DNA of 64,000 nucleotides from Candidatus Latescibacterota bacterium (GCA_965204725.1 OZ242005.1:3200001-3264000), one strand, 5' to 3'; shown: positions 10,832 through 33,821, counted from the stretch's first letter. Notes: generated by a model not told the origin, from the letters alone. Program-made: numbers and translations.

Positions 10832-12427
10832 ATGCACATCGAAGTCTATGACTCCACCCTGCGGGACGGTGCCCAAGCCGAGGGCATTTCCTATTCGCTG
10901 GAGGACAAGCTGCTCATAGCTCGGCGGCTCGACGCGCTCGGGGTTGACTACATCGAGGGGGGCTGGCCCAATCCCACTAATCCCAAGGATCTGGCCTTTT
11001 TTCAGGAGGTTGAGAAGCAGGGCCTGAAGGCGCAGGTGACCGCCTTTGGCAGTACGCGCCGGGCCGGCGTGGCCCCGGAGGACGACGCGACCTTGAACAC
11101 GCTCCTCAAGGCCGAGACCCGCAGCATCTGCATTTTTGGCAAGAGCTGGACTCTGCACGTCGTCGAGGTGCTCAAGACGACCCTCGAAGAAAATTTGCGG
11201 CTGATCGAAGACTCGGTGGGGCACCTTGTGGCGCGTGGGCGCGAGGTGATTTACGACGCCGAGCATTTCTTCGATGGCTACTGCGCCGACCCAGACTACG
11301 CAATCGCCACGCTGGGCGCGGCCGAGCGGGGCGGGGCGCGTTTACTCGTGCTCTGCGACACCAACGGCGGCCGGCTGCCGAGCGAGATCGGCCGCATCGT
11401 CGCCGCGACCCGGGACGCCGTGGGGCTGCCGTTGGGCATTCACACCCACAACGACGCCGGCATGGCCGAGGCCAACACCGTGGCCGCGGTTGAGCAGGGG
11501 GCCGTCCAGATCCAAGGCACGTTCAACGGGTATGGCGAGCGTTGCGGCAACGCCAACCTGTGTACGGTGATCCCAACGGTGGAGCTCAAGCTCGGCAAGC
11601 ACCTGATCGGCCGCGAGCACCTTGCGGAGTTGATGGACTTCTCCCGCTTCTTGAGCGAGATCGCCAACGTGTACCACGACCACCGCCAGCCTTATGTCGG
11701 CGAGAGCGCGTTCGCCCACAAGGGGGGCGTCCACATCGACGCCATGATCAAGAACCCGCGCTGCTACGAACACACCGATCCGGCCGCCACGGGCAACGAG
11801 CGGCGGTTCTTGGTCTCAGACCAAGCGGGCGGGGCGACGATAGTCAGCAAGCTCCAGCGGTTTTTGCCCGAGCTAGAGAAGCGGGATCCGCTGGTGGGGC
11901 AGGTCTTGGAGCGGGTCAAGCGGTTGGAACACGAGGGCTATCAGTTCGAGGCGGCCGAGGGGTCGTTTGAGCTGCTGGCGCGCCGAGTTCAGGGCACGTA
12001 CGAGGACGCATTCACCCTGATCAACTTCCGCACGATCAACCGCAGGACCGGGGAGCACGCGGAAGAAGCCGAGGCCATTGTCAAGGTCGCCATCGGCGAT
12101 GCGGAGTACCATACGGTCGCTGGCGGCGATGGCCCGGTCAACGCGCTCGACCAAGCGCTGCGCAAGGCACTGGAGCAGAAGTTTCCCGCGCTCAAGCAGG
12201 TGCATTTGGAGGACTACAAGGTGCGGGTGTTGTCGAGCGGGGACGGGACCGCGGCCAAGGTGCGGGTGCTGATTGAGTCCTCGGACGGCAAGGATGTGTG
12301 GGGGACGGTGGGGGTTTCGGAGAATGTAATTGAGGCGAGCTGGATCGCGCTGGCCGACAGCTTGCACTACAAGTTGATGAAAGACTCATTAGCGGGGAGC
12401 CTTTGTGCGCGCCGGCCGAGCCGGTAG
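10832..12427 (+). CDS. cimA: Citramalate synthase
   Basis: DSTLRDGAQAEG, GKSW, DAEHFFDG, AFAHKGGVH, GYQFEAAEGSF, DYKVR, WGTVGVSENVIEAS. Confidence 0.9.
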   Translation: MHIEVYDSTLRDGAQAEGISYSLEDKLLIARRLDALGVDYIEGGWPNPTNPKDLAFFQEVEKQGLKAQVTAFGSTRRAGVAPEDDATLNTLLKAETRSICIFGKSWTLHVVEVLKTTLEENLRLIEDSVGHLVARGREVIYDAEHFFDGYCADPDYAIATLGAAERGGARLLVLCDTNGGRLPSEIGRIVAATRDAVGLPLGIHTHNDAGMAEANTVAAVEQGAVQIQGTFNGYGERCGNANLCTVIPTVELKLGKHLIGREHLAELMDFSRFLSEIANVYHDHRQPYVGESAFAHKGGVHIDAMIKNPRCYEHTDPAATGNERRFLVSDQAGGATIVSKLQRFLPELEKRDPLVGQVLERVKRLEHEGYQFEAAEGSFELLARRVQGTYEDAFTLINFRTINRRTGEHAEEAEAIVKVAIGDAEYHTVAGGDGPVNALDQALRKALEQKFPALKQVHLEDYKVRVLSSGDGTAAKVRVLIESSDGKDVWGTVGVSENVIEASWIALADSLHYKLMKDSLAGSLCARRPSR

Positions 12428-12453
12428 CGGAAATACGCAAAGGCGAGCGAACC

Positions 12454-14088
12454 TTGAGCCCAAAACCCACATCTGTTCAATACAACGATTGGCACCAAGT
12501 TGAAGTAGAGCCGCTGGAGACGTTCGCGCCCACCCTGCCGATTAGCGTGATCATCCCGTCCTACCAAACGCCGGCCGAGACGCTGGCGCGAACCTTGGCG
12601 GCGCTCGAAGGCCAGACCTATCCGCGGGAGTTGTTCGAGGTGATCATCGTGGACGACAGGTCGGACCCGCCGCTGGAGTGCATCCCCTCGACGCCGCTGG
12701 ATGTCAAAGTGCTGCGCTTGGATCGTGATGTCGCGCGCGCGCGAAACAACGCCGCGCGCGCGCGAAACAACGCCGCGCGCGCGCGAAACAACGCCGCGCG
12801 CGCGCGAAACAACGCCGCGCGCGCGCGAAACAACGCCGCGCGCGCGCGAAACAACGCCGCGCGCGCGGCGGCCCACGACATTCTGCTCTTCTTCGACGAC
12901 GACATACTTCCCGAGGCGGGCTATATGATGGCGCACGCCCGCTGGCACCACGCCGTATCCGACGCCCTGACCGGCGGACCCGTCGCGCACGTGGCGATAG
13001 ACGGCATCCATGCGGAGACGATCCGGCACCGGCCGGGATCGTTGGAGGCGCTGTTTTCAGACCGGTCGGCCGACCCGCCCTTATCGACCGGCCTCATGGC
13101 CAGAACCAACAATCTGACGTCGCGGGCCGACGATCTGTTTAGGGCGATAGCCGCCGGAGCCTTTGGGATTGGCAAGGATTTCTACTGGTCGGTGGGTGGG
13201 TTCGACGAATCGTTCACGCGGTATGGAGGGGAGGACACCGAGTTTTTCTACCGGGCTTATACTCGCGGGGGACTGCTGGTGCCGGTCCAGAGTGCCCTCG
13301 CTTGGCACCAAGGCCGCCGGAATGAGGATAGAGACGCCAAGAATCGCAGCAGTCGGCTCCAGCACGGGAAAGCAGTGCATCTGATCGCCCACCCCAGCTA
13401 CCGCGGCAACAGTCCCGGCCGCATCTTCACGGTGCCCCAGTATGTGGTGACCGTTGATGGGCGTCAGTGCCGGACCGATCAAGTCATCCGAGCCGTCGTG
13501 AACCTTTTGGCCGACCGAGTGCATGACTTGGTGGTCCGAGTCGAAACGGACGCGAGTGGCGACGACGAGCGGCTGGAGCGGCTGGAGGAGGCGTTTGGGC
13601 CGGACCCTCGGGTGCGCGTCGCTCCCACCCGTTCCGCCCTTGACGAGTTTCCGGTGTCGCCGTTCTACGTCGAGCTTCCCGCCGCGGCGTTCGCCCGGGG
13701 CTTGGTGCATCGCTTGCGCGTCCGGCTGAAAGACGCGGTGCTCGCCACCTCAGAGCTATCCGACGGGACCACGGTGTCCATCGTCCGCTCATGGGCGGTT
13801 CACCGGGCGCGTCGCACCGGGAAAAGCCCGGCCGACTTCGGAGCGGTGCGGGCGATACCCGCTACGGTGCTGAGGCTCAAGGCGGCAGGCGTCGCGGAGG
13901 GCGACGCGGCCGAGGAGCCCGTTGACTACCCCACCAACAGGGAGCGCCTGCGCGACCAGATGCGAGACATCCGCTGCTCTAGGGGGATTTGGGCGTTCTG
14001 CAAGTGGATGATCGACATGGTCCGGTGGAGGGCGCTCAACAAGTGGCAGGCGGTTCGTTGGCGTCTCCGGCGGGTGACACGGAACTAG
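12454..14088 (+). CDS. GT2 glycosyltransferase, chondroitin/hyaluronan synthase N-domain-like (copy 1)
   Basis: SVIIP, EVIIVDD, FFDDD (DxD), GGFDESF..YGGEDTEF, WHQ. TTG start chosen by homology to paralogues. Confidence 0.85.
   Translation: MSPKPTSVQYNDWHQVEVEPLETFAPTLPISVIIPSYQTPAETLARTLAALEGQTYPRELFEVIIVDDRSDPPLECIPSTPLDVKVLRLDRDVARARNNAARARNNAARARNNAARARNNAARARNNAARARNNAARAAAHDILLFFDDDILPEAGYMMAHARWHHAVSDALTGGPVAHVAIDGIHAETIRHRPGSLEALFSDRSADPPLSTGLMARTNNLTSRADDLFRAIAAGAFGIGKDFYWSVGGFDESFTRYGGEDTEFFYRAYTRGGLLVPVQSALAWHQGRRNEDRDAKNRSSRLQHGKAVHLIAHPSYRGNSPGRIFTVPQYVVTVDGRQCRTDQVIRAVVNLLADRVHDLVVRVETDASGDDERLERLEEAFGPDPRVRVAPTRSALDEFPVSPFYVELPAAAFARGLVHRLRVRLKDAVLATSELSDGTTVSIVRSWAVHRARRTGKSPADFGAVRAIPATVLRLKAAGVAEGDAAEEPVDYPTNRERLRDQMRDIRCSRGIWAFCKWMIDMVRWRALNKWQAVRWRLRRVTRN
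12733..12858 (+). repeat. Six exact 21-bp tandem repeats (GCGCGCGCGCGAAACAACGCC) encoding (ARARNNA)6
   Basis: Directly visible; in frame within GT2 copy 1. Confidence 0.95.
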
Positions 14089-14092
14089 TGCG

Positions 14093-15598
14093 TTGAGTCC
14101 GCAACCGAACTCAGTCTGGTACAACAACTGGTGCGAAGTGCCGGTCGCGTCGTCAGAGACGTTCGCGCCCACCCTGCCCGTCAGCGTTATCGTCTCGTAC
14201 TACGACGCCCCCCAAGCGCTGGAGTTGACGCTGGCGTCCCTTGAAGGACAGACGTACCCGCGCCATCTCTTTGAGGTCGTTGTCGTGGACGACGGTTCGC
14301 CGACGCCGCTGACGCCGCCCCGGTCAACGCCCCTCGACATCAAGGTGGTGCATCAAGCGGACTGCGGCTTCGGGCTAGCGAGGGGCCGAAACACCGGGGT
14401 TCGGGCGGCCGCCCACGACATCCTCCTCTTTCTCGATGGCGACCTACTGGCCGAAGCCGGTTGGATAGAGGCCCACGCCCGCTGGCACCACGCCGTATCC
14501 GACGCCCTGACCGCCGGCTTTCACGCCAACGTGGCGGTCGAAGGCATTGACGCGGAGGCCATTCGGCGGCGGACCGGATCGCTTGAGGAGCTATTCTCCG
14601 GTCGGCCGACGGAGCCGCCGTGGGTAGAACGCCATATCAGAATGACCAACGATTTGACCTCGTGCGACGATGACCTGTTCAGAATGGTGGGTGGGGGAAA
14701 CTGCGGGATCCGCCGGGATTTCTACGAGTTAGTGGGCGGGTACGACGAGTCCTTCACCGGATGGGGAGCAGAGGATGTCGAGTTCGCCTACCGGGCCTAC
14801 ACCCGAGGCGGGCTGCTGGTGCCGGTCCGGGACGCCTTCGCATGGCATCAGGGTCTCCAGAAGGAAGGCTGGGCCGCCAAGTGGAAGAGCGGCGAACCCC
14901 AGCACGCAAAGGCCGCCCACTTGATTGCCCACCGCCGGTTCCGCTGCGCCTCGCCGGGGCGAACCTTCGCGGTGCCCCAGTACGTAGTGACCATCGAGCG
15001 AGAGCGGGAAGGGCTGCCGGCCGACCAACTCTTTGAGGCCGCGGTGAAAATTTTGGCCGACCGGGAGCATGACTTGGTGGTGAGAGTCGAGATAGAGGAC
15101 GACGACGACGGCTTTGAGTGGCTCCGGCAACAGTTGGGGCCGGACCCGCGAGTGCGCGTCGGGCCAGCGGGGTCGAGCCTCGACGAATTTTCAGCGGCCT
15201 CGTTCCACGTCGCGCTTCCCGCCTCCGTCCCATTCGCCGTCAACTTGGTGCATCGCCTGCGCGAAACGCTAGGCGACGCGGTGATCGCCCGGGCGACCCT
15301 CCCCGGCGGCCAGACGGTGTCGATTGCCCGGGCGTGGGCACTCCATCGGGTGCGCCGCACCGGGAAAAGCATCGCCGACTTTGGCGACGAGGTGACGGTT
15401 TCCCCCAAGAAGGTGGGTCTCGGAGGTCGCAGCCGCGGCGGCGTCAGCGGCGAAGCGGTGCGGACGACGTTTTGGAGCGGCCCCTCGAAGATGGCATGGC
15501 TGCGCGTCGAAGCGAGGAGCATAGACAGCCCGGCGCGAGCGTGGTGGTTCTTGAAATGGCTGGTGCGCGGCTTAGTGCGATGGGGCCGCCGCTCGTAG
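14093..15598 (+). CDS. GT2 glycosyltransferase, chondroitin/hyaluronan synthase N-domain-like (copy 2)
   Basis: VVDDGS, HQADCGFGLARGRN, FLDGD, GGYDESFTGWGAEDVEF, WHQ. Confidence 0.88.
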   Translation: MSPQPNSVWYNNWCEVPVASSETFAPTLPVSVIVSYYDAPQALELTLASLEGQTYPRHLFEVVVVDDGSPTPLTPPRSTPLDIKVVHQADCGFGLARGRNTGVRAAAHDILLFLDGDLLAEAGWIEAHARWHHAVSDALTAGFHANVAVEGIDAEAIRRRTGSLEELFSGRPTEPPWVERHIRMTNDLTSCDDDLFRMVGGGNCGIRRDFYELVGGYDESFTGWGAEDVEFAYRAYTRGGLLVPVRDAFAWHQGLQKEGWAAKWKSGEPQHAKAAHLIAHRRFRCASPGRTFAVPQYVVTIEREREGLPADQLFEAAVKILADREHDLVVRVEIEDDDDGFEWLRQQLGPDPRVRVGPAGSSLDEFSAASFHVALPASVPFAVNLVHRLRETLGDAVIARATLPGGQTVSIARAWALHRVRRTGKSIADFGDEVTVSPKKVGLGGRSRGGVSGEAVRTTFWSGPSKMAWLRVEARSIDSPARAWWFLKWLVRGLVRWGRRS

Positions 15599-15620
15599 CG
15601 CACGGTCTAAGTACGCGACG

Positions 15621-15753
15621 CTTACGTTGAGTCCGCCTTTTCTGCTGTTGCCGATGAATCCGGGATGTTCAACACGCCCAAAGTGGGTTTTCGGACAGCT
15701 TCTTACGTTGAGTTCGCCTTTTCTGCTTCTGCTGTTGCCGCTACATCCGGGAT
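15621..15753. repeat. Two imperfect ~46-52 bp direct repeats (CTTACGTTGAGT.CGCCTTTTCTGCT...CCGGGAT)
   Basis: Copies start at 15621 and 15702. Confidence 0.8.
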
Positions 15754-15797
15754 CGAGGGCGTCCCGCCCTCGACGAGGGCAAGATGCCCTCGATCCT
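15728..15797. repeat. 70-bp dispersed REP-like element with twin GAGGGC..GCCCTC hairpins (copy 1)
   Basis: One mismatch against 60023-60092. Confidence 0.9.
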
Positions 15798-15851
15798 TTA
15801 AGGTAAGGATAGCGACAAGGTGTTCCCCGAATTAGCCTACAGGTGCTCTCG

Positions 15852-17228
15852 ATGAACCGCACTAATGCAGCAGCAGCGGCGGGCGGTTCCGCGTGGACCC
15901 GCTTCTTAGACAGGGTGCGGGCCATTCGACGCCCCGGCGGGGCCTCGGCGTTCCTGCGCTGGTTGAACGCCGTGCGGCGGCGGGAGACCAACAAGCGGCG
16001 GGTGGCTTGGTGGCATCTCCAAAGCGCGATGCGGAGCCGCTGGATACGCGCCCAATCGTGGCGGGCGAGTTCGGTTCCCGCCTTCGACCTCGGCGGCTAC
16101 AACCCGATTGGCTGGAAGCGCGACGTAGGGAGCGAGGTGGCGGCGTTGGGGCCGCTGGAGCGGCTGCCGCCCGACGTCGAGGCCCATCGCGTCGTTCATC
16201 GGCGCGACCTGCGCCGGTTGCGCCGAATCCACCACCTCGAAGACACCTCGGCGTTCCATTCCAGCGTCGTTGCGCGAGCAGGCGACTTGGCTCGCTTGGC
16301 CGCGCTGGGCGTGGTCATCCATCTGGCGGACGGAGACCAGCGGCTTCTCCCGTTGCTCGGCGACGATTTCTATCGGCTGGCGACCTCAAACGCGCACGGC
16401 CTCAACGCCGACGCCCGGGAGTTGCTCAGCGTCGGGCTGCGCCGCGCCGCTTTGCGAGAGCATTCGTCTTGGGCACGGGGGAAAGAGCTGCCCTTGGTGT
16501 CCATCCTGCTGGCGACTAAGCGCCCCGCGTTTTTGCCGTGGGCACTCGCCAATGCGGCGAGACAAACCTATCCCAAGGCGGAGTTGATCTTGGTGCTGCA
16601 CGGCGAGGGCTTTGCCGATGTGGAGCGGCAGGTTGCCGAATTGCCGCTCCCGGCAAAGGTGCTGCGGATGCCTGCGAGCGAACCCCTCGGCGCGGTGCTC
16701 AACGCCGCGACCGCCGCAGCGAGCGGGACGCTGCTGACCAAAATGGACGACGACGATGTGTACGGCGTCGATCACCTGTGGGACTTGGTCCTGGCGCGGG
16801 AGTACTCGGGGGCGCAGCTAGTGGGCAAGTGGCTGGAGTTCGTCTATCTGGCTGCCGCCAACCGCACCATTCGCTGGTTCAACGGGTGCGGTGAGCGCTA
16901 CCAGACGTCGGCCTTGGCCGGGGGTACGCTGCTCATTTCCCGCCGCGACTTGGACGGCGTCGGCGGTTGGCGAAAGGTGCCGAGCGGCGTTGATGCGGCA
17001 CTGGCCGAAGATGTCCTGCGAGCCGGCGGGCGCGTTTACCGCACCCACGCGACCGGCTTCATGCTGGTTCGGCATGGCTGCCGCCATACTTGGAGCGACC
17101 CAGACGGTGCCGACGACGCCCTGCTCGCCAAGGCCGACCGCGTCTGGTGCGGCTTCCAACCGGCCCGGGCGGCCATTGAGGAGCCGAACCTTGGGCATCC
17201 GGCCTTGGCCGGTGAGCAGTGTTCTTAG
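15852..17228 (+). CDS. Glycosyltransferase with C-terminal GT-A/GT2 domain
   Basis: PLVSILLATKRP, QTYP..ELILVLHG, LGAVLN, TKMDDDDVYG, GVD..L. Confidence 0.8.
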   Translation: MNRTNAAAAAGGSAWTRFLDRVRAIRRPGGASAFLRWLNAVRRRETNKRRVAWWHLQSAMRSRWIRAQSWRASSVPAFDLGGYNPIGWKRDVGSEVAALGPLERLPPDVEAHRVVHRRDLRRLRRIHHLEDTSAFHSSVVARAGDLARLAALGVVIHLADGDQRLLPLLGDDFYRLATSNAHGLNADARELLSVGLRRAALREHSSWARGKELPLVSILLATKRPAFLPWALANAARQTYPKAELILVLHGEGFADVERQVAELPLPAKVLRMPASEPLGAVLNAATAAASGTLLTKMDDDDVYGVDHLWDLVLAREYSGAQLVGKWLEFVYLAAANRTIRWFNGCGERYQTSALAGGTLLISRRDLDGVGGWRKVPSGVDAALAEDVLRAGGRVYRTHATGFMLVRHGCRHTWSDPDGADDALLAKADRVWCGFQPARAAIEEPNLGHPALAGEQCS

Positions 17229-17253
17229 AAGCGCGTGGGCAGGAGGACGAGCT

Positions 17254-18867
17254 ATGGACCAACCCCTGCGGAATTCGCCGCTTCCGCTGGCGCTGCTGCT
17301 GCTGGGGCTGTCAACGGTATTCTTTTTTGGCAACGACCGGGGCCACTTCTACCGGCCCGGTCACCACAATGCCACAACCGCGAATACCATGGGGATCGTC
17401 GCGAACCTATCCCCAGAGCATACCTTCCTCGGATTCTTTTATCGAACCGTCGATGACGACAACACTCCGACGTACAGGCTGTACAATCGCTTTCCGATTG
17501 GCGGCTATGGGCTGATAAAGCTGGCGACGTGGCCGGTGGGCGACAGCCTGTCGGCGCGGCTTTGGGCGGCGCGGCTTTTCATGCTGGCCTTTTTCGCGGC
17601 CGCGGCCATCTTGGCCTACCTGTCCCTCAGTCGGCTCATCGCCAACCCATGGATCGCCCTAACCGCGACGCTGCTAGCTTTCGCTTCCTACTACTGCCTG
17701 TATTACAACGATGCCGTCAACCCCGAAGTGTCAATGAGCCTGTTCGGGGTATTACTGACCTTTCACGGCATGGTGATTTTCGAGCACGAGGGACGCTTCC
17801 GACAACTGCCGGTCAAGGGGTGCGTCGCCCTGCTGCTGGGCTGGCACGTGTACGCCCTGCTGCTGCCGTTTATCGTGCTCCGCTTGGGGAGCGAACTGAT
17901 CCGGTTGCGGTTGCGCGCCGGCCTCCGCTATCTATCGCCGCTTAGCAACCGCTATATCATACTTGGCGTCGTCTGCTTGCTGTTCGGAGGGGCTGTCTTG
18001 GCTTTCAATCTCATCAACGAAAGCCAATACTTGGCGCTGAACGCGGAGAAAACCCAGATGGAAAACCCCACGTTCCAGTCGATTCTGCGGCGCGTAGGGG
18101 TTGATGATTCGGATTTTTACGCCACCTATGCGGCCACCGCTTGGCCGTCTTTCCTGAAGAGGCAATTTCTAGCCATCGCCCGCATGAGCCTGCCCTACGC
18201 TTGGTCTGGCTACGCCCAAGCGCTGGGCGAATCCGCCCAAGGGCCGTTGAAGCTGCTGGCCGTCGTCTTGGGAATCACCGCGTCCGGCGCGTTGCTGATT
18301 GGCCTGCGGTTGGTTCGCCATAAAATCCTGCTGGCGACCTTGGTGCTGTACGGGTTCTGCTGGGGGCTGTCGATGCGCTATCACACCGCCTTCCACGATT
18401 TTGAGAGCGTCCACTACATCGGCATTCCGCTGGTCTTGTTCTCGCTGGTTTTGCTGTTCATCCGCAAGCGGTGGGGCGACCGCGTCGTGGTTGGCTTGGC
18501 GGTTGCCGCGCTCTTGGTGTTCGGCCTTTCGAGCGCGGATATGAGCCGCGTGGGCAACGACGCCCAAGCCGCCGCGCTGCAAAAAACGCTGCTCAGGGAT
18601 TTTGCCGCGATTCGCGCCCAGATCCCGCCGGGCGGGCGGGTTTTCGTTCCTATATCGAGCTCTTGGAAGGCGGACTCCACGTTTGCTGGGGTGCGGCGCG
18701 CCTTGAGTTACTATCTCGCCGGAAGAATTATTATATATAATGAGCCGCCCGGAAGGCGTCGCTTTGCCGACTGGGTCATCGCGCCCCAGCGCGTGGAGAC
18801 GGATGGGCTGCTCACGCCCGATAATCGGCTGAGGTTCCTGTACGAGCGGGACGCGCTGAGTGAGTGA
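17254..18867 (+). CDS. Polytopic membrane protein, GT-C/ArnT-PMT-like
   Basis: SD AGGAGG before ATG 17254; many TM segments; YNRFPIG loop and a C-terminal soluble domain typical of GT-C folds. Confidence 0.6.
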   Translation: MDQPLRNSPLPLALLLLGLSTVFFFGNDRGHFYRPGHHNATTANTMGIVANLSPEHTFLGFFYRTVDDDNTPTYRLYNRFPIGGYGLIKLATWPVGDSLSARLWAARLFMLAFFAAAAILAYLSLSRLIANPWIALTATLLAFASYYCLYYNDAVNPEVSMSLFGVLLTFHGMVIFEHEGRFRQLPVKGCVALLLGWHVYALLLPFIVLRLGSELIRLRLRAGLRYLSPLSNRYIILGVVCLLFGGAVLAFNLINESQYLALNAEKTQMENPTFQSILRRVGVDDSDFYATYAATAWPSFLKRQFLAIARMSLPYAWSGYAQALGESAQGPLKLLAVVLGITASGALLIGLRLVRHKILLATLVLYGFCWGLSMRYHTAFHDFESVHYIGIPLVLFSLVLLFIRKRWGDRVVVGLAVAALLVFGLSSADMSRVGNDAQAAALQKTLLRDFAAIRAQIPPGGRVFVPISSSWKADSTFAGVRRALSYYLAGRIIIYNEPPGRRRFADWVIAPQRVETDGLLTPDNRLRFLYERDALSE

Positions 18868-19688
18868 TGCTGATGAGCAGACTGAAACAACTACACGCAA
18901 TTTGCGCGAACCCGCTCGTCGTCCGGGACCTCGCCGGTGCGTTGGGGCGCGGCGCGTTTGGCGTGGCGCGGCGCATGGCGTACACCGCGGTGCGCTCGCC
19001 GGACCTGACGGCGGAAAAGGTCGTCTCCCGAAAATACCGCTGCCTCTGGCTTTGCAATCCCAAGGTGGCGTCGCGGAGCATCATAGCGGTGCTGCGCGAT
19101 GCAGACCCCGATGCTGAAATCATTGAAGGCGCGAGCGTCGCCCAAGTGTACGCCATGTACCCAGCCGTGAAGGATTACTTCAGTTTCGCGTTCATCCGGC
19201 ATCCTTTTGACCGGGCACTTTCGCTGTATGCGGAAATGCGCTTCTTCCGCACGCGCTTTGACGGAGCGAATCGTTGCCGCAAAGAGGAGCGCCAACGGTT
19301 CCTCGCCAACGCGTTCTTTGGGCTGGCGGAGGTGAAGAGCTTCGACGACTACTGCCGCTGGCTGAACACGCCTTACGGTTCGGATGCGTTCGCGAACTGC
19401 CACTTTCTGTCCCAGCATCGGCAAATATGCCTTTTAGATGACCGCCGGCCCGATTTCATTGGCCGCCTCGAGAACATAGCCCGCGACTTGGAGCGAGTCG
19501 CCGAGCACTTGGGGATGCCGCTGCCGACGCTGCCGATGCTGAACACGATGGCGGGATGGCAACCGCGGTCGCCGCAAGCGTTGCAAGCCGCCCGGGCGGA
19601 GATGAGCGCGCTCTTGACCGAGCAGAACAGGGCGTTGCTCAGCAAGCGGTATGCGGGCGATTTGGAACTGGGGGGCTATTCGCCGTGA
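18867..19688 (+). CDS. Sulfotransferase family 2 protein
   Basis: 5'-PSB motif NPKVASRSI; 3'-PB motif FIRHPFDRALSLY; HFLSQ; DFIGRLE; YAGDLE. Confidence 0.88.
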   Translation: MLMSRLKQLHAICANPLVVRDLAGALGRGAFGVARRMAYTAVRSPDLTAEKVVSRKYRCLWLCNPKVASRSIIAVLRDADPDAEIIEGASVAQVYAMYPAVKDYFSFAFIRHPFDRALSLYAEMRFFRTRFDGANRCRKEERQRFLANAFFGLAEVKSFDDYCRWLNTPYGSDAFANCHFLSQHRQICLLDDRRPDFIGRLENIARDLERVAEHLGMPLPTLPMLNTMAGWQPRSPQALQAARAEMSALLTEQNRALLSKRYAGDLELGGYSP

Positions 19689-20479
19689 CTGGACGCGCAA
19701 AAAGCCCACCCCTGAAAACACTGGCCAAAAAGGTGCTCAGGCGGGTTCACCTGTATAAACAGGCCGCTCGCATGCACGGCCGGGTCCGCTTGGCCTTGCG
19801 CGATCTGCGCCGCATCGACAGCCGCATCGCGGCGCGCTACCTCGCGGAGGCGAGCGATCCCAAGCTCCACATCGGCTGCGGCGACAACCTGCTCGACGGC
19901 TGGCTAAACTCCGATCTGCACCCCCGCTCTAAAAGCGTTCTGCGGCTGGATGTGACGCGCCCGTTTCCCTTTGCGGACGACACCTTCACCCACGCTTACA
20001 GCGAGCATCTGCTCGGCTCGATTACCTTTCGCGCGACGATGGCCATGCTGAGCGAGTGCTTTCGCGTGCTCGCGCCGGGCGGCAAGCTGCGCATCACGAC
20101 CTTCGACTTGGCCTTTCTGATCGATCTGTACCGGCGGGAACGCTCTGAGCTGGAGGAGCAGTACCTCAAGTGGGCCGCCGATACTCGCTTGCAACGGCGC
20201 GAGGACAGCCCGCACCGCGCATTGCAGGAGCGAGCGAGCGGGCCGCTTGCGGAGACCGGCTTTTTGGTCAATCACACCCTGCATTCGGAGTGGGGTCTGT
20301 TCGTGTACGACGAGCCGATCTTGCGCTGTGTATTTGAGAGCGCCGGGTTCCAAAACGTAGTGAGGTGCGACCTGAACCAGAGCGAGGATGCCGCGCTTTG
20401 TGGCTTGGCCAACGAGGGGCGGCTGCCGGATGGCTTTCTACGGCTGGAATCCGTCACGCTCGAAGGAAGCAAGCCATGA
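19685..20479 (+). CDS. Class I SAM-dependent methyltransferase
   Basis: KLHIGCG, DVTRPFPF, YSEH, RVLAPGGKLRI; GTG start overlaps the upstream stop. Confidence 0.85.
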   Translation: MTGRAKSPPLKTLAKKVLRRVHLYKQAARMHGRVRLALRDLRRIDSRIAARYLAEASDPKLHIGCGDNLLDGWLNSDLHPRSKSVLRLDVTRPFPFADDTFTHAYSEHLLGSITFRATMAMLSECFRVLAPGGKLRITTFDLAFLIDLYRRERSELEEQYLKWAADTRLQRREDSPHRALQERASGPLAETGFLVNHTLHSEWGLFVYDEPILRCVFESAGFQNVVRCDLNQSEDAALCGLANEGRLPDGFLRLESVTLEGSKP

Positions 20480-22200
20480 GGTGGCACTGGATTGTGCTAG
20501 GTGCGGGGCTGGTCGGTTGGTTGCTCGTCGCCTACGGCTGGGTTCCGGTGCTGCTCGAAGCCGGGTATCGGCAGGAAAGCATCGACTCGATCAATGAACT
20601 CTTCCCCGGCCGGGCGAAAAACCCGTTTGCGAATTACCTCGACCGCTGGCACGAAATGGCGCGGCTGGGTACGCTCTGGTGCGTGGTCCTCGTCGGTGCC
20701 GGCCTGTTCGGGCGTCGGATCTGGATGAGCGTTCCGCGATTCTTTGAACGCACTGTCGGCGCTGCGACGCCTGGGACGCTCGGGGCGATCCGCGCTTGGA
20801 CGTGCGCCATCCTGTTCCTCGATACGCTTCGCTACGACTTGGCGAGTACGACGCTGCTTCCCGCCGAGATGATCCGGCCGATGGGCCTGATGCGCCTGAT
20901 GCACTGGCTGCCCCTCGGGTATGACGCCTTCCTCGCGGCCCCGATGGCACTCTGGGCGTTCCAGTACGGCACGATGCTGCTGCTCCTATTCGGCGTCCTC
21001 GGACTGGGTACGCGGATTGTCGTGCCAGCCGCCGCGATCTGCCACCTCATGGTGGGCGGGATCGGGCGGGAGTATTCGTTTTTCTATCACGGCGGCCTAA
21101 TCCCGTGGTACGTGCTGGTCGTGCTCGCCTTTACCCGCTGCGACCAAGGCTGGTCCATCGACCGGCTCTGGCGCGTCGCCCGCCGACGCCCTGTGCCGCC
21201 AGTGAATCAGCCCACCGCGGAGTGCGGCTGGGCGCGGTATGCAGTGTGGACGACCATTGCCATGCCGTACGTGATGGCTGGTTGCAGCAAGCTATACGAC
21301 TCGGGTCTAGGGTGGGTCGCGGCCGACAACGTGCGCGCCCATCTGCTGCGGCCCAACTTAAAGATGCCGTACGAGGACAGCAACGTATTGGACTCCATCT
21401 TGCAGGCCCCGGACCTCCTAATCGTCCTGCAGGGCGTGGTTGCGATAGGCACGGAGCTGGCCTTCGGCCTCGTGCTGGTGTCCCGGCGCGCCCGCTTGGT
21501 GCTGCCCGCCATGATGGTGCTGGTCCACATCGGGATCGCGGTCTTACAGAAGATCGTATTCCCCGATCTAATAATGCTGCTGTTGGTGTTCTACGACTGG
21601 CGGCCGTTGGGCCGGGCCGTGAGGCGATGGTTCCCGGCCCCGGTGCGAATGGAGTGCTCGCTCCCCCCAAGCGACGCTGCACCCACGCACCGACGAGGCG
21701 CGCTTGTCGTCCTGGTGATCGCGGCAGTGGCCGCGTCCGTCTGGACCGCCGGCCTCAGCTTCTATCCGCTCACGCCGTTGGACATGTTCAGCAAGCCGGA
21801 GTCGCCGCCCGGCATCGTCGAATACGAGCGAGTGGTCGTCTATTGGGAGGACGGCACCAGCGAGGAGGCCCCGCTTGATGAGTGGTGCCGGTTGACGCCT
21901 ACATTCAGGTTTTGGCCTGTTGAGGTTGCGTTCAAGCACCCGGCGGAGGTGACCCGCCGTCAAGACATCTCTTGGTCGTTTCGGCCGGTGCTCGAAGCGG
22001 CGTTTGAGGGCATGGAAAGGCGGGAGTTGGCCCGGAAGTTCCTAGACGCTGTGGTTCACGCGGCAGACTTACAGACCAAGACGCCGCGCCCGCTGCGCTT
22101 GGAGGTCCAGCTTTGGCGCTGGGATTTTGCCAACGACCCAGACAACCCCGACCGCGGCGTCTTGGTGGACCGATATGTCCACGCCATCAGCCCTTCTTAG
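20476..22200 (+). CDS. HTTM-like (vitamin K-dependent carboxylase-like) membrane protein
   Basis: Multi-TM; LG..R, WSIDR, Y..AG.SKL..SG.GW, EL, HIGI and YPLTP..MFS motifs. Confidence 0.65.
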   Translation: MRWHWIVLGAGLVGWLLVAYGWVPVLLEAGYRQESIDSINELFPGRAKNPFANYLDRWHEMARLGTLWCVVLVGAGLFGRRIWMSVPRFFERTVGAATPGTLGAIRAWTCAILFLDTLRYDLASTTLLPAEMIRPMGLMRLMHWLPLGYDAFLAAPMALWAFQYGTMLLLLFGVLGLGTRIVVPAAAICHLMVGGIGREYSFFYHGGLIPWYVLVVLAFTRCDQGWSIDRLWRVARRRPVPPVNQPTAECGWARYAVWTTIAMPYVMAGCSKLYDSGLGWVAADNVRAHLLRPNLKMPYEDSNVLDSILQAPDLLIVLQGVVAIGTELAFGLVLVSRRARLVLPAMMVLVHIGIAVLQKIVFPDLIMLLLVFYDWRPLGRAVRRWFPAPVRMECSLPPSDAAPTHRRGALVVLVIAAVAASVWTAGLSFYPLTPLDMFSKPESPPGIVEYERVVVYWEDGTSEEAPLDEWCRLTPTFRFWPVEVAFKHPAEVTRRQDISWSFRPVLEAAFEGMERRELARKFLDAVVHAADLQTKTPRPLRLEVQLWRWDFANDPDNPDRGVLVDRYVHAISPS

Positions 22201-22204
22201 CCCA

Positions 22205-23755
22205 ATGAATTCCGTTTGGTATAACGACTGGCGGCAGGTCGAGGTGACGCCGCTTGATGCGTTCGCGCCCACTCGGCCCGTCAGCGTGGTAATCCCGTAC
22301 TACCAGACGACCGCCGACCCGTACTACCAAAAGTCCGCCGCGACGCTGGCGCGGACCCTCGCGACGCTCGAAGGCCAAACCTACCCGAGGGAGATGTTTG
22401 AGGTGATCCTCGTTGACGACGGCTCTGAGCCGCCGCTGAAGCGGCCTCCCTCGACGAGGCTTGACGTGAAGGTCATACGGCGGGAGCGGCGCGTATTCGG
22501 GCGTGCCTTGATGCGCGCCACCCACAGTCAGGCGATGAACGCCGGCGCTCGGGCCGCGACCCACGACATCTTGCTCTTCCTCAACAGCGTCATGCTGGTC
22601 GAGGCGAACTGGATGGCGGCGCACGCCCGCTGGCACCACGCTATCTCCGACGCCCTGACCGTGGGGATTCGCGCCTACGTAGATGTGAACGGCCTCGACG
22701 CGGCGACCATTCGGCAGCGGCCCGGATCGCTGAACGAACTGCTTGCAGGCCGGCCGATGGACCCGCCCTTGTACGAAGGCTACATGGCCAAAACCAACGA
22801 TCTGACTTCGCGGGCCGATGATCCATTTCAGGTGGTGGTCGGGGGAAACTTGGGGATGAGCAAGGGGTTTTACTGGTCGGTGGGTGGGGCCGACGAATCG
22901 TTCACGTACTGGGGATTAGAGGATGTCGAACTCGGCTACCGGGCTTATACGCACGGCGGGCTGCTGGTGCCCGTCCGGGACTCCTTGTCCTATCGCCAAG
23001 GCCGCTGGAATGAGGACCGCGACGCCAAGCACCGCAGTACTCAAATCCAAGAGGGAATAGCGGCTCACCGGATCGCCCACCCTTGGTACCGCGGCAACCG
23101 GCCCGGTCGAATTTTCGCGGTGCCCCAGTACGTGGTGACCGTCGATGGGGGGCGATGCCCGGTCGGCCAAATAGTCCGGGTGGTCGGCAACATCCTGACT
23201 GACCGCGTACGCGATCTGCTAGTGCGAATCGAAATGCAGGCGAGCGACGACGATGAAGAGCGGCTGGCCCGGCTCCAAGCGGAGTTTGGCCCGGACCCGC
23301 GCGTACGTGTCGCGCCCACGCCCACCGCCCTCGACGAATTCCCCGCGTCGCCGTTCCACGTCACCCTGCCCGCGGCCGTGGTCGCCAAGGACTTGGTGCA
23401 TCGGCTGCGGTCCAAGCTCGGAGACGCGGTTCACGCGGCATCGGTGCTCCCCGACGGGTCGGGCAGGGTATCGATCACCCGGTCGTGGGCACTCCATCGG
23501 GCGCGGCGCACCGGAAAAAGGGTCGCCGACTTCGGCGAAGCGCGGGCGATACCCGCCGCCGCGTTAAAGATCGCGGTCGCTGACCCGGCCGAGGATGTGG
23601 CCCGCGTCGGTAGAGCGGAGGCCGTGAACCACTCAGCCCAGTGGAGACGCTTGCGCGCCCGGCTGGGGGCCATCACCCACCCCGGCGAGGTGGGGCCGTT
23701 CCTCAAGTGGCTGGCCGGTTCGGTTTGGCGGCGGGTCGGCGGGAGGCCGCGGTGA
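22205..23755 (+). CDS. GT2 glycosyltransferase-like protein (copy 3; DxD replaced by NSV)
   Basis: Full-length paralogue of copies 1 and 2; VDDGS and WGLEDVELGYR retained. Alternative start at 22175. Confidence 0.82.
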   Translation: MNSVWYNDWRQVEVTPLDAFAPTRPVSVVIPYYQTTADPYYQKSAATLARTLATLEGQTYPREMFEVILVDDGSEPPLKRPPSTRLDVKVIRRERRVFGRALMRATHSQAMNAGARAATHDILLFLNSVMLVEANWMAAHARWHHAISDALTVGIRAYVDVNGLDAATIRQRPGSLNELLAGRPMDPPLYEGYMAKTNDLTSRADDPFQVVVGGNLGMSKGFYWSVGGADESFTYWGLEDVELGYRAYTHGGLLVPVRDSLSYRQGRWNEDRDAKHRSTQIQEGIAAHRIAHPWYRGNRPGRIFAVPQYVVTVDGGRCPVGQIVRVVGNILTDRVRDLLVRIEMQASDDDEERLARLQAEFGPDPRVRVAPTPTALDEFPASPFHVTLPAAVVAKDLVHRLRSKLGDAVHAASVLPDGSGRVSITRSWALHRARRTGKRVADFGEARAIPAAALKIAVADPAEDVARVGRAEAVNHSAQWRRLRARLGAITHPGEVGPFLKWLAGSVWRRVGGRPR

Positions 23756-23759
23756 TCTC

Positions 23760-24824
23760 GTGGCTGTTTCAGGACGACGCGTTCTGAGAATGGGACTCAT
23801 GGGCAGAAAAACGACGTGGGACCTGCTTTATCGCAGCGGTCTCTCGGCCGCCATCGGCCATCGGTACGCCGGCATCGGCTCCATCTTCGCGTTCCACCGC
23901 GTCGTGCCCGAGGTGTCGGCCCATCTGAATGGAGAGCTGTATGTCAGCGTCCAATTCTTGGAAGACTGGCTGGCCGCGCTACACAAGGCCGGCGTCGAGG
24001 TGATTTCCATGAGCGACGCTGTCGAGCGCGTGGCCGATCCGGGCCGCCCTTCCTCCGGGCCGCCCTTCGTCGTCGTCACCTTTGACGACGGATACGCCGA
24101 CAACCTCGCGTATGCCCTGCCGGTATTGGAGCGGTATCAAGCACCGTTCACCGTGCATGTCACAACGGCGTTGGTGGAGGGCAGCGGCTACTTGTGGTGG
24201 CTCGGCCTAGAGCACGTGCTGCGGAGGAACGAGGCGGTTGAGGTTCCGCCGATGGAGAGACGGTTCACGGCCGCGTCTATCGAGGAAAAGGCGTACGCCA
24301 TCGCGCAAGTGGAGCGTTGGGTCTGGGCGGATGTCGCGCAGCGTGCGCCGATGCTGCGCGAGGTGTTCAAACGGTACGGCGTGTCCCTGAGCGCAGTGAC
24401 GAAGGAGGCCGGATTGTCGAGGGAGCAGTTGCGCGAACTCGGCGGTCACCCTTTGGCGACCATCGGCGGTCATACTACCGACCACCCCGATTTGACGAGC
24501 CTCAGCCCATTGCAGGCGTCCCGTGAAATGTCCGATAACAAGACCTTTCTCGAAAACCTCTGCGGGTGCCCGGTCGATCACTTTGCCTATCCCTACGGCG
24601 TTGGCGGAGCGCGGGAGGCGACCTTGGCTGGGAAAGCCGGTTTTAAGACAGCCGTCACCAACAAGCAGGGTTGTCTATTCCCGGACCATCGAGACCACCG
24701 CTTGTTGTTGCCGCGCCACCTATGCCTAGGTTCTAGAATGTGGTTGAGCTTCGCGCATGCCCAGCGGCACGGCGCACGGCATTTTATTGACAGCCGCGGC
24801 CGAGGTCCGGTGGTCGCGCTTTGA
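23760..24824 (+). CDS. Polysaccharide deacetylase (CE4/NodB)
   Basis: FHRV, TFDDGY, GGHTTDHP, FAYPYG. Confidence 0.9.
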   Translation: MAVSGRRVLRMGLMGRKTTWDLLYRSGLSAAIGHRYAGIGSIFAFHRVVPEVSAHLNGELYVSVQFLEDWLAALHKAGVEVISMSDAVERVADPGRPSSGPPFVVVTFDDGYADNLAYALPVLERYQAPFTVHVTTALVEGSGYLWWLGLEHVLRRNEAVEVPPMERRFTAASIEEKAYAIAQVERWVWADVAQRAPMLREVFKRYGVSLSAVTKEAGLSREQLRELGGHPLATIGGHTTDHPDLTSLSPLQASREMSDNKTFLENLCGCPVDHFAYPYGVGGAREATLAGKAGFKTAVTNKQGCLFPDHRDHRLLLPRHLCLGSRMWLSFAHAQRHGARHFIDSRGRGPVVAL

Positions 24825-26188
24825 TTCGCGTTCAGGTCAGGTCCCTAATTGCGTGGCTGCTCCCGGCTTCGGAGCAGCGCGTAGTGCGGCATGCTTTATG
24901 GATATACGCCATAAGGGCGGTACACATCTTGGGCGGCTTGGTGACGCTACCCCTATCCGTCCGGATCCTCGGCGCGGAAGGATTTGGCGTCCTGACCGTC
25001 ATCATCGCCGTTGCTCGCCTCATCTACGGACTGGCTTCTACGTCGGGCGGCGAAGTCATTACAACTTTCGTGATGCGGAGCGTGGCCGAAGGCCGGTCTG
25101 AGGCCGCGTCCATATTTCGTTTTGCCCTAATCGCCTCTGTGGGGCTGAGTTTTGTTGCCTACGCCGTCATTGCCGTCCTGACCTTCACGGCCGGTAGCCT
25201 GCTGGAGATTGACCCAGCATACCGACACCTAATGCTCCTGTATGGCATGGTCGGCCTCTTGACGGCTGTGAATAGAGAATCGCAGGCAGTGCTGCGCTTG
25301 GCCGACCGCCTGCAACTCGGACTGGGCGTCATCGTAGTCGTTACTTTGGGTCGGATCGGCCTCCTTGTGGCGGTATGGCTGACCGGGGGCGGGATCATGG
25401 AGGTCGTTTTGGTATATGTCGCCGTGTCGGCCGTGAACGGGTTGGGGATGTTCGCCGTTGCTACGGCGTCGGCACCGCGGGCCGGCTTGGCCGGCTTCTG
25501 GCGCTCGACGTCGATCAAAGTCCCGCCGGAAGTGGTGCGGTTCTACGCTGGAAGGTACTGGGAGGCAGGCATCAATACGGTGTTGATGAATAATCTGGAT
25601 GTCCTCTTGCTGGCGCGGTTCGCGGACTCGGCCGACGTGGGGCTGTACGGCGCGGCGCGGCGGCTCGTGAACATGGTACGAGATTCAATCGTGCCGGTAC
25701 GCGCCGGGGCGACGCTTGAGTACAGCCGACTGTGGTACTCGGAACGGGGCGCAGAGCTGCGCCGCGTCGTGCTCAGCACCACCGTCTTGTCATGCGCGTT
25801 GTTCGCCGCTGGATTCGGGCTGCTGGCCCTCTTTCGAGAGCCGATCATTCGACTTTTCTTAGGCGGTGAGTTCGCCGGCGTGGCCCCGCTGCTGCTGATT
25901 TCGATTCTGGGGACGCTCAACATCGCCCCCGCGTTTATATCGTTGCCGGCCGCGGTGGGGCGCGTTGGTCCGATCATCCTGTCGGCAACCGTGAGATTGG
26001 CCGTTTTTCTTGCCGCTATGCTGTGGATGGTGCCCGAACACGGCGCGGAGGGAATGGCTTGGGCCAGAACGATATCCGGCTTGGTCGGCCTCCTCATTAT
26101 CACCTCGTTTGCCATCTCGATACTGCGGCAGAGTTACCGGCTGCGCCACGACATTGAGCAGGCAACGACTCAGCAGCCCGGCACATAG
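24821..26188 (+). CDS. Wzx/MOP-family oligosaccharide flippase
   Basis: About 12-14 TM segments; LGAEGFG, D.LLL....SADVGLYGAA. Confidence 0.85.
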   Translation: MIRVQVRSLIAWLLPASEQRVVRHALWIYAIRAVHILGGLVTLPLSVRILGAEGFGVLTVIIAVARLIYGLASTSGGEVITTFVMRSVAEGRSEAASIFRFALIASVGLSFVAYAVIAVLTFTAGSLLEIDPAYRHLMLLYGMVGLLTAVNRESQAVLRLADRLQLGLGVIVVVTLGRIGLLVAVWLTGGGIMEVVLVYVAVSAVNGLGMFAVATASAPRAGLAGFWRSTSIKVPPEVVRFYAGRYWEAGINTVLMNNLDVLLLARFADSADVGLYGAARRLVNMVRDSIVPVRAGATLEYSRLWYSERGAELRRVVLSTTVLSCALFAAGFGLLALFREPIIRLFLGGEFAGVAPLLLISILGTLNIAPAFISLPAAVGRVGPIILSATVRLAVFLAAMLWMVPEHGAEGMAWARTISGLVGLLIITSFAISILRQSYRLRHDIEQATTQQPGT

Positions 26189-26223
26189 CAAGGCCGATAC
26201 GGCCAGCGAAACGAGGTTCAGTC

Positions 26224-27774: not shown

Positions 27775-27832
27775 GGCGCGAACCGCTCGAAACGGCCGTC
27801 ATTCATTTTTTAACCCAACGAGGAGATTACCC

Positions 27833-28582: not shown

Positions 28583-28685
28583 CGGGAGTACGCCCCGAGC
28601 CGCTCGGTCACGCGAAGATAGATTCTCCAAAAAGAAAGGCGTATAATCGAGTCAACGCCGCCCTGTCAAGGAAGGAGGTTCAGCC

Positions 28686-30236: not shown

Positions 30237-30382
30237 GGATTGTGTGCGTGGTACTAATGACGACCGGAAGGGTATTGAATACGACTTCACAACCCGGATA
30301 CGGTCCTTTACGTTCTAGCCGAGTCCACGCCAGACCCGTTGGTTGAGGTGAACGGGTGCGTCGCCTCGGAAAGGAGTGGGAC

Positions 30383-31939: not shown

Positions 31940-31997
31940 GACGCAACGGAAAAGGGCACCTACCGTGCCTATAACGCATAAGAAACAGAGGTCGGAC

Positions 31998-33548: not shown

Positions 33549-33593
33549 AGATTGTTATCGCACCGCTACAAACAATGGACCGGCATCAAGCCC

Positions 33594-33701
33594 AAAGTTG
33601 TCGAACGCGGTGCGTTCTCCCGCGGCGACACGGCCACCTCGCGGCTGTTAGATGGCTTCGCCGTTGAGGTGACGGCCCTGTTCGAGTACGCCAAGGGATA
33701 G
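33594..33701 (+). pseudogene. C-terminal remnant of a Uma2/DUF820 endonuclease
   Basis: KVVERGAFSRGDTATSRLLDGFAVEVTALFEYAKG* resembles the Uma2 C-terminus (G....S.LL.GF.V.V..LF). Confidence 0.55.
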
Positions 33702-33713
33702 GATATTGAACCC

Positions 33714-33806
33714 GACTTAGAATCGGCTGTCGCTCAACCCCGTATGACGTTTGACGGATACGATCTTTATCCCACTATTATAGAAAAGGCGGCAGCCTTA
33801 TGTTTT
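33714..33806 (+). pseudogene. Fragment of a Fic/Doc (death-on-curing) toxin
   Basis: LESAVAQPRMTFDGYDLYPTIIEKAAALCF is the segment that precedes the HPF.DGNKR motif, which is missing here. Confidence 0.75.
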
Positions 33807-33821
33807 ACCAGAGGAGGAAAA

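Follow-up and report, generated by a model that had tools for sequence, protein, structure and literature searches.

We analyzed a 64,000-nucleotide stretch of DNA from Candidatus Latescibacterota bacterium (GCA_965204725.1 OZ242005.1:3200001-3264000), referred to below as the window, whose positions 12454-26188 contain a group of glycosyltransferase (GT) genes and a sulfotransferase gene that appear to direct the synthesis of a sulfated glycan. An earlier note, written from the sequence alone, had described here ten co-oriented, mostly coupled genes and had read them as a locus for a sulfated glycosaminoglycan (GAG)-like polymer. The arrangement was as described: ten plus-strand open reading frames (ORFs) fill the interval and either overlap by 4 nt or lie only a few bases apart, one 253-nt spacer excepted. 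In the following list and thereafter, A denotes a GT2b-type protein, B a GT4th-like protein, and S a protein like the sulfotransferase of the window.

12454-14088, plus strand: GT2a, A-type glycosyltransferase family 2 (GT2) paralogue, probably non-catalytic (Pfam, alignments, site tally, exact look-up).
12732-12867, plus strand: perfect 21-bp x 6.5 in-frame tandem repeat, (ARARNNA)n, within GT2a (TRF, cluster-member sequences).
14093-15598, plus strand: GT2b, canonical A-type GT2 related to the A1 domain of KfoC (Pfam, PDB sequence search, alignment, site tally).
15599-15851, plus strand: spacer of 253 nt with direct repeats and a strong hairpin (repeat search, folding z-score).
15852-17228, plus strand: GT4th, B-type GT2 and partner of the A type (Pfam, profile search, fusions with A in homologues).
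17254-18867, plus strand: memb, polytopic membrane protein of 537 aa (nine hydrophobic segments, no match to a Pfam family, relatives with a weak GT-C-like signal).
18867-19688, plus strand: sulfoT, soluble sulfotransferase of PF03567 (Sulfotransfer_2) (Pfam; PKxAS and PxxRxxS motifs conserved).
19685-20479, plus strand: MT, Class I S-adenosylmethionine (SAM)-dependent methyltransferase, a weak match with an inferred start (Pfam).
20476-22200, plus strand: HTTM-like polytopic membrane protein (sub-threshold Pfam score, support from relatives).
22205-23755, plus strand: GT2c, A-type paralogue, pseudo-glycosyltransferase (alignment, site tally, tree).
23760-24824, plus strand: carbohydrate esterase family 4 (CE4) polysaccharide deacetylase (Pfam, PDB match, TFDDGY and HTTDH motifs).
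24821-26188, plus strand: Wzx-type flippase, Polysacc_synt, MOP family (Pfam).

The intervals are 4 nt at GT2a/GT2b and HTTM/GT2c, 253 nt at GT2b/GT4th, 25 nt at GT4th/memb and 4-34 nt at GT2c/CE4. The memb and sulfoT genes overlap, and 4-nt overlaps join sulfoT to MT, MT to HTTM and CE4 to Wzx. An exact look-up returned deposited starts identical to the called starts for six genes (GT4th 15852, memb 17254, sulfoT 18867, HTTM 20476, GT2c 22205, Wzx 24821). The deposited starts of GT2a (12403) and GT2b (14138) differ, and the family alignments favor 12454 and 14093.

GT2b matched Pfam Glycos_transf_2 (1.9e-17), contains the DxD motif as LDGD, and kept every family-invariant residue when its sites were tallied against 120 homologues. 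Among all PDB sequences, its best match was the E. coli K4 chondroitin polymerase KfoC (2z86/2z87, E 2.8e-21), where query residues 30-254 aligned with chain residues 94-330, that is, with the N-terminal A1 domain. The likeness to the N-acetylhexosamine (HexNAc)-transferase domain of KfoC that had been read by eye from the GT2 cores is therefore borne out for GT2b. According to the available part of PMC7764085, the A1 domain of KfoC transfers N-acetylgalactosamine (GalNAc) and its A2 domain glucuronic acid (GlcA). Polypeptide GalNAc-transferases came next among the PDB matches of GT2b, none of them better than 6.5e-10, and the E value for heparosan synthase B was 0.009. The earlier note had considered that kinship of the GT2s with rhamnosyl- or galactofuranosyl-transferases would speak against its proposal; no such enzyme was named among the 33 PDB matches that GT2b gave at E≤1, some of them under no more than a generic name, so this objection does not apply to GT2b. 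Judged by sequence, GT2b is related to the GalNAc-transferring half of bacterial chondroitin polymerase.

Beyond its GT domain, GT2b has a C-terminal region of ~240 aa that ends in a basic amphipathic tail, and all names returned by an NCBIfam scan, EpsD and MftF for example, scored far below threshold. A near-length search, in which 8000 candidates were scored, placed 624 proteins in the GT2b family at E≤1e-5. The best 120 of these were 54-100% identical to GT2b, mostly 55-61%; most covered 96-100% of the query and 20 covered 60-94%. Several GT2b homologues are often encoded per genome.

GT4th also matched Glycos_transf_2 (1.2e-7). It has a DDDD motif, keeps all conserved residues, and carries its GT domain at about residues 215-420, behind an N-terminal region of ~210 aa. 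In a profile search of the PDB, the best matches of GT4th were generic GT2s (9jma 1.3e-6, 6p61 3e-6). Heparosan synthase B was matched less well, in its N-terminal GT domain (1.8e-4), and KfoC less well still, in its second domain (1.1e-3, chain 370-472). Because the match to KfoC A2 is this weak and generic GT2s score better, GT4th cannot be called a glucuronyltransferase. The GT domains of A and B are homologous GT-A domains (hhalign probability 94.4%). With this value as the positive control, the idea that the C-terminal ~240 aa of A or the N-terminal ~210 aa of B is a degenerate GT-A domain was rejected (<3%).

A search for longer proteins with GT2b yielded 410 at E≤1e-20, and the domain architectures of the best 120 of these and of the best 120 of the 624 near-length homologues were determined by BLAST against the domains of the window. 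Most of the 120 listed longer homologues were A-B (85), and 12 were A-B-A-B, some of them ~2000 aa long. The remainder were A alone (6), A-A (4), A-B-A (3), A-B-S (3), A-A-B (2), and one each of S-A-B, A-B-A-B-B, B-A-B, B-A-A-B and A-A-A-A, so that A and B shared one polypeptide in 109/120. The 120 listed near-length homologues comprised 114 A, three A-A and three A-S. Precomputed Pfam assignments revealed other fusions, to GT4 domains or to a Bac_transf initiating transferase (e.g. P0221). One A-B fusion of 977 aa (P0164) shares 65% identity with GT2b and 59% with GT4th. The window has separate neighboring genes for A and B, with A first as in the A-B fusions.

Our genome survey yielded at least four close loci, the window's own genome not among them, and it under-samples both how widely the module is distributed among taxa and how often a sulfotransferase is linked to it. 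The loci lie in a Vicinamibacterales metagenome-assembled genome (MAG) (L001), an Acidimicrobiia MAG (L002), Bryobacterales (L003) and a gammaproteobacterial MAG (L004). In-frame fused ORFs were found at L001 (958 aa), L002 (2009 aa, A-B-A-B) and L004 (1620 aa). At L003, a lone A-type GT (11802-13100) has DDE_3 and HTH_32 transposase fragments next to it, and neither B nor S occurs within 10 kb. Actinobacteria have more distant A+B pairs, at identities of about 30% and 41-49%, near teichoic-acid-type genes and an AftA_N GT-C gene. Taken together, these comparisons indicate that GT2b and GT4th are a conserved two-enzyme module.

The proposed sulfotransferase was readily confirmed as a family member, with a PF03567 score (9.3e-15, 55.9 bits) far above the cut-off of 22. 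K64, the 5′-phosphosulfate-binding (PSB) lysine, and P111, R114 and S117 of the 3′-phosphate-binding (PB) PxxRxxS motif were invariant in 4/4 aligned sequences; the portion of PMC11625862 available describes such a lysine loop, which binds 3′-phosphoadenosine 5′-phosphosulfate (PAPS), and the PxxRxxS motif of sulfotransferases. The protein has no predicted membrane segment, and neither the single sequence nor a 4-sequence profile matched a solved structure in the PDB. S was fused to GTs in 7/240 listed homologues (A-S, A-B-S and S-A-B). It also adjoins the module at L001, where tblastn matched three places and two ORFs matched PF03567, and at L004, where tblastn matched one place. The adjacency in the window, the adjacency at L001 and L004, and the seven fusions tie the sulfotransferase to A-B. 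A sulfated glycan is well supported as the putative product.

The earlier note had counted three GT2s besides another GT. Pfam in fact gives four, GT4th included (GT2a 1.7e-13, GT2c 6e-11), but the figure of three overstates the capacity of the locus because GT2a and GT2c are degenerate and only GT2b is canonical. In the same way, the motif string read by eye fits GT2b and aligns with KfoC, but GT2a lacks its GF, and GT2c lacks its D.D and HQ. Among the 120 homologues, D115 was conserved in 119, D117 in 120, R99 in 120, H252 in 118, G68 in 119, G92 in 118 and G94 in 120. GT2c has N115, V117, M99, R252, V92 and Y251 in place of D115, D117, R99, H252, G92 and W251, and it lacks the DxD motif of GT2/GT-A enzymes, N115 and V117 replacing the near-invariant aspartates. 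GT2c further carries an insertion of 7 aa and, at 22294-22340, a 24-bp x2 duplication. The DxD-less state is common to 13/14 full-length members listed of the ≥90% identity cluster of GT2c and is therefore old, yet the reading frame is uninterrupted. A quick tree placed GT2c on a long stem (0.39) and GT2b in a well-supported clade apart from GT2a and GT2c; paralogues of other genomes were likewise spread over different subclades.

GT2a keeps DDD but carries G68R, and its '...RQECRGFGL...' segment is replaced by 'RLDRDV(ARARNNA)n', with loss of GFG. The 21-bp repeat unit includes (CG)6 and is strongly hairpin-forming on the opposite strand, and an excess of terminator-like sites was traced to the repeat on that strand. 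We tallied the copy number in the 15 members listed of the 22-member ≥90% cluster of GT2a. Six copies were present in the window only, four copies in two members, three copies in five members, with one further member having two exact units and one variant unit, and two copies in two members. One member had no copies and an intact ancestral motif, and three members are 387 aa long and start after the repeat. All of the repeat variants observed are in frame. Because the copy number differs among cluster members, the repeat is a real length-variable tract rather than an assembly artefact. The motif is intact too in the more distant orthologues P0074, P0055 and P0107, and strains with the intact allele are 90.6-90.8% identical in GT2a versus 96.9-97.9% in GT2b. 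GT2a is probably non-catalytic, and the loss of catalytic or nucleotide-binding residues suggests that GT2a and GT2c are at best non-catalytic partners. With regard to variation of surface glycans, an in-frame repeat of variable length inside a GT paralogue is a minor curiosity in its own right.

The five remaining genes encode two membrane proteins and three enzymes or transporters of recognizable families. The label 'GT-C-like' given earlier to memb is supported by relatives only: the window protein has no Pfam match, whereas 36 relatives scanned at E≤5 gave weak, sub-threshold matches to PMT (11), Glyco_transf_22 (3) and PMT_2 (2) (best E 1.8e-4), a hint of the GT-C fold. There were 711 relatives of memb at E≤1e-3 among 50%-identity representatives, and a memb profile searched against the PDB returned only a spurious RND-transporter segment. 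Kinship of memb with the Wzy_C-bearing ORF at L004 or with the HTTM family was rejected (hhalign 0.15% and 0.14%). We regard memb as a candidate periplasmic polymerase, ligase or glycosyltransferase. The HTTM label has family-level support from relatives, of which 9/30 matched PF05090 (best E 5.2e-6), but the window protein itself scored 18.7-19 bits, under the cut-off of 27.7. Among 83 homologues, four had PF05090 in precomputed assignments, 31 were fused to a DCC1-like thiol-disulfide oxidoreductase (PF04134) and one to a GT4; an HTTM-like profile had no match in the PDB.

The deacetylase and the flippase, as proposed, scored above their Pfam cut-offs. The CE4 protein matched Polysacc_deac_1 (PF01522) at 2.2e-20 (73.3 bits, cut-off 23.1) and PDB 6dq3 at 2.9e-11. 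Its translation contains TFDDGY and HTTDH, which we take to be the Asp-Asp and His-x3-His metal/catalytic motifs, and has no obvious signal peptide by eye. Wzx matched Polysacc_synt (PF01943) at 1.3e-9 and PF13440 at 2.4e-7. The methyltransferase call was likewise sustained, by a weak Methyltransf_11 match (2.7e-5) at 25.1 bits against a cut-off of 21.2.

With modest confidence, we lean towards the view that the product of the locus is a surface or extracellular glycan that contains HexNAc, is sulfated and bears further decorations. The best-supported reading of the product is a sulfated, methylated, partly de-N-acetylated HexNAc-containing glycan. The corresponding proposal of the earlier note stands as far as the sulfotransferase, the deacetylase and the methyltransferase are present and a sulfated glycan is well supported, but its term 'GAG-like' is unsupported. 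We infer the sugars, the order of the steps, the topology and the product as follows. GT2b (A) and GT4th (B) would act at the inner face of the membrane and add two different sugars, one after the other, to a lipid-linked acceptor. The sulfotransferase would then transfer sulfate from PAPS to the growing glycan in the cytoplasm, a location that is suggested because the protein has no transmembrane segments and occurs in A-S and A-B-S fusions. In this lineage, the SAM-dependent methyltransferase and the CE4 deacetylase would next decorate the glycan, and the Wzx-type protein would flip it. The weakly GT-C-like memb and the HTTM-like protein might handle the glycan outside, speculatively as polymerase or ligase.

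Several observations weigh against this reading. PAPS-synthesis, nucleotide-sugar and initiating phosphoglycosyl transferase genes were absent from the window ORFs scanned, and no Wzy, chain-length polysaccharide co-polymerase (PCP) or outer-membrane polysaccharide export (OPX) protein was recognizable among them. The check suggested earlier, for genes of PAPS synthesis and of uridine diphosphate (UDP)-GlcA or UDP-GalNAc supply, was run on these ORFs and found none. Co-location of PAPS genes and sulfotransferases is a hallmark of such clusters in the accessible part of PMC11641403. Invariant residues have been lost from two A paralogues out of three, the second-best structural relatives of GT2b are protein GalNAc-transferases, and the donor and acceptor specificities of the GTs are not readable from sequence. 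Two of the four close loci (L002 and L003) had no sulfotransferase within 10 kb by tblastn, and sulfation is therefore better viewed as a frequent accessory than as an obligatory part. Furthermore, memb, MT, HTTM, CE4 and Wzx had no tblastn match in L001-L004, which belong to other phyla, so the 'ten-gene system' is lineage-specific and A, B and S alone make up a conserved core. The partners at those loci are different ones: a Caps_synth GT, a GT4 and an ABC exporter at L001, a Bac_transf protein about 6 kb off at L002, and a Wzy_C protein at L004.

An alternative that we consider unlikely is that A-B acts as an alternating co-polymerase like KfoC or pmHAS, so that a HexNAc-uronate (or HexNAc-Gal) backbone is sulfated and partly de-N-acetylated to give a sulfated GAG-like polymer. 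The KfoC A1 match of GT2b and the profile matches of GT4th to KfoC and heparosan synthase B are in its favor, and A precedes B in the 85 A-B and 12 A-B-A-B fusions listed, as A1 precedes A2. The multi-domain fused GTs and the ABC exporter at L001 would also fit polymerizing enzymes, and sulfated GAG-like polymers whose genes are unidentified occur in Pontiella and in granular sludge, according to the portions available of PMC7356697 and PMC10483923. However, GT4th is closer to generic GT2s than to KfoC, and ~450 aa without an assigned fold lie between the two GT domains, unlike in KfoC. UDP-glucose or UDP-N-acetylmannosamine dehydrogenases and, more generally, UDP-sugar dehydrogenases or epimerases were not found among the ORFs scanned in the window, L001 (20), L002 (12), L004 (7) and L003 (7/25). 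The Wzx here, Wzy_C at L004 and Bac_transf near L002 and fused in P0221 point to lipid-linked repeat units and not to a KpsMT-type capsule; no KpsMT-type ABC export or UDP-uronic acid supply was found among the window ORFs scanned, where the exporter is instead of Wzx type. The uronic acid and the alternating HexNAc-uronate backbone implied by the earlier note thus find no backing in the second GT domain, the scanned ORFs or the mode of export.

It is about equally improbable, in our estimate, that the sulfated oligosaccharide is destined for a protein (an S-layer or secreted glycoprotein), a glycolipid or a cell-wall polymer, to which the GT-C-like protein would transfer it outside the membrane. 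The polypeptide GalNAc-transferases next in line for GT2b, the weak matches of memb relatives to the protein O-mannosyltransferase families PMT and PMT_2, the teichoic-acid-type and AftA_N neighbors of the actinobacterial A+B pairs, and a window without chain-length or outer-membrane export genes would all agree with this. Nevertheless, the PMT matches are all sub-threshold, with none in the window's own memb, the locus has no gene for a candidate acceptor protein, and A-B-A-B fusions of 2000 aa suggest assembly of a repeat unit or a polymer.

A broader reading, which we find doubtful, joins several of these elements: A-B(-A-B), often S-fused, would be a widespread, undescribed class of modular glycan synthases behind the sulfated GAG-like polymers of environmental biofilms, an alternating co-polymerase with sulfation coupled to polymerization in the cytoplasm. 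In it, the dead GT2a and GT2c would be kept as non-catalytic partners, one of them tuned by the variable repeat. The chondroitin polymerizing factor of animals is such a non-catalytic partner. Very unlikely is a locus partly decayed in this lineage, with its ancestral product lost, GT2a and GT2c as relics and the repeat as neutral slippage in a dead gene: the loss of six near-invariant residues in GT2c and of GFG and G68 in GT2a, the freely variable copy number, the 387-aa GT2a members and the long stem of GT2c agree with decay, but none of the ten ORFs is disrupted, GT2c shows 95.7-97.5% identity between strains, the same range as GT2b (96.3-97.9%; strains paired by proxy), its DxD-less form is old and uninterrupted, the repeat stays in frame, and GT2b, GT4th and sulfoT keep every conserved residue. 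We retain a sulfated, decorated HexNAc-containing glycan as the most plausible product.

The locus is preceded on the same strand by ilvC, leuA, leuC, leuD, leuB and a second LeuA-like gene (end 12427), and followed by four tandem AAA-ATPase_like/PDDEXK_9 paralogues and argJ. The G+C content is 58-68% over the whole window, 62-65% in the glycan locus (12000-26000), 58-59% in the AAA array (26000-34000) and 59-64% in the flanks, and the contrast between the glycan locus and the array may reflect different origins. The ≥90%-identity clusters of GT2a, GT2b, GT2c, GT4th, memb, sulfoT, HTTM, Wzx and LeuA apparently share their sources; this is a proxy rather than a direct test, and it suggests that the whole locus is retained beside leuA across the strain population. 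Among ≥90% mates, LeuA was labeled Gemmatimonadota (2/3 named members), and IlvC was labeled Gemmatimonadota (2), Latescibacterota, Handelsmanbacteria and 'bacterium'. An environmental member of that group is thus the probable source. The host-matrix mimicry raised in the earlier note has no support; the nearest labeled relatives of the window's housekeeping proteins are environmental MAGs, mostly labeled Gemmatimonadota. A search of a plasmid collection gave no match at 60% identity, the best places among those listed being at 26-32%.

The spacer at 15599-15851 contains two 26-nt direct repeats (15621-15646 and 15702-15727) 81 nt apart, where the chance expectation is 0 matches, and a long perfect hairpin at about 15750-15800 (folding z-score -2.3). 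The spacer may have a regulatory role within the locus, as a promoter or operator, or may encode a small RNA. A Sigma-70 promoter scan found one site versus 2.9 expected.

In the downstream array (26224-33548), the 300-nt segments compared among the four AAA-ATPase_like/PDDEXK_9 paralogues are 80-96% identical in DNA, and PADLOC returned no match for the four proteins. A SAM-dependent methyltransferase gene (27713-28582) with likeness to PADLOC mad2 (2.4e-15) is inserted after the first copy. L001 has two homologues of the array proteins (64-66% aa identity) about 5-10 kb from its GT module. Two minus-strand genes of the window are possibly defense-related, a UvrA-like double ABC ATPase (42029-44767) that also matches PADLOC mad3 at 1e-68 and a DUF5343 protein (37226-38101) that matches PDC-M34A at 2e-10. 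The window further encodes two adjacent glucose/sorbosone dehydrogenase (GSDH) paralogues (34-3756), of which one bears a cytochrome c domain at its C-terminus and the other an fn3 domain, a He_PIG/FlgD_ig protein with a Por_Secre_tail sorting domain of the type IX secretion system (T9SS) type (51700-53826), an ankyrin-repeat protein (53939-54592, minus strand) and its only tRNA, Gly-GCC (54532-54607, minus strand).

Bacterial polysaccharides that carry sulfate are, to our knowledge, rare and little understood, and the classical bacterial GAG capsules have no sulfotransferase. Relative to KfoC (K4CP; 2z86, 2z87) and, by extension, pmHAS and PmHS, GT2b aligns with the first GT-A domain, A1, and has the listed motifs in common with it. 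Relatives of GT2b carry a second GT2 domain in the same polypeptide, as KfoC does, whereas the window has two separate genes. The second domain here is only generically GT2-like, ~240 + ~210 aa without detectable GT-A signal lie between the catalytic domains, and the locus has a sulfotransferase but neither KpsMT-type export nor a UDP-GlcA gene. The animal Sulfotransfer_2 enzymes (chondroitin 4-O-, HNK-1 and heparan sulfate 2-O/6-O) belong to the same Pfam family and have the PSB lysine and PxxRxxS in common with sulfoT. The latter, however, is soluble and presumably cytoplasmic rather than a Golgi type II protein, and matches no solved structure. The available text of PMC7356697 states that no prokaryotic GAG sulfotransferases are known, and that of PMC10483923 that bacterial pathways to sulfated GAG-like polymers are not well known.

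The synechan cluster xss of Synechocystis PCC 6803 (PMC8205485, as far as its accessible text goes) resembles the present locus in having genes for a Wzx-type flippase and sulfotransferases among GTs, with sulfation presumed on the cytoplasmic side. It differs in having its own Wzy, PCP, regulators and eight separate GTs, and neither an A-B fusion nor a KfoC-like GT is described in that text, which assigns cyanobacterial sulfotransferases in general to PF00685, PF03567 and PF13469. Actinoplanes missouriensis wps-1 (PMC13390465), Pontiella F21 (PMC7356697) and the capsular polysaccharide (CPS) cluster of Vibrio sp. KMM 8419 (PMC11641403) have in common with the present locus a sulfotransferase, a methyltransferase and GT2/GT4 enzymes, and their products are sulfated or so predicted. 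In the parts of these reports available, their GT sets differ from the present one and A-B or A-B-S fusions are not reported; the Vibrio cluster includes cysNDC and an ABC transporter, and the Pontiella sulfotransferases were found with PF13469, whereas that of the window belongs to PF03567. We found no description of the A-B(-S) modular family in the literature searched, which is weak evidence of its being unpublished because subscription journals were largely uncovered. The locus offers a concrete, testable enzyme set of a chondroitin-polymerase-related GT, a partner GT and a sulfotransferase, and the natural A-B and S fusions are ready-made expression candidates that could open enzymatic routes to defined sulfated glycans. 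Sulfotransferase-bearing polysaccharide clusters are already known or predicted, and it is the A-B(-S) modular family that may be new.

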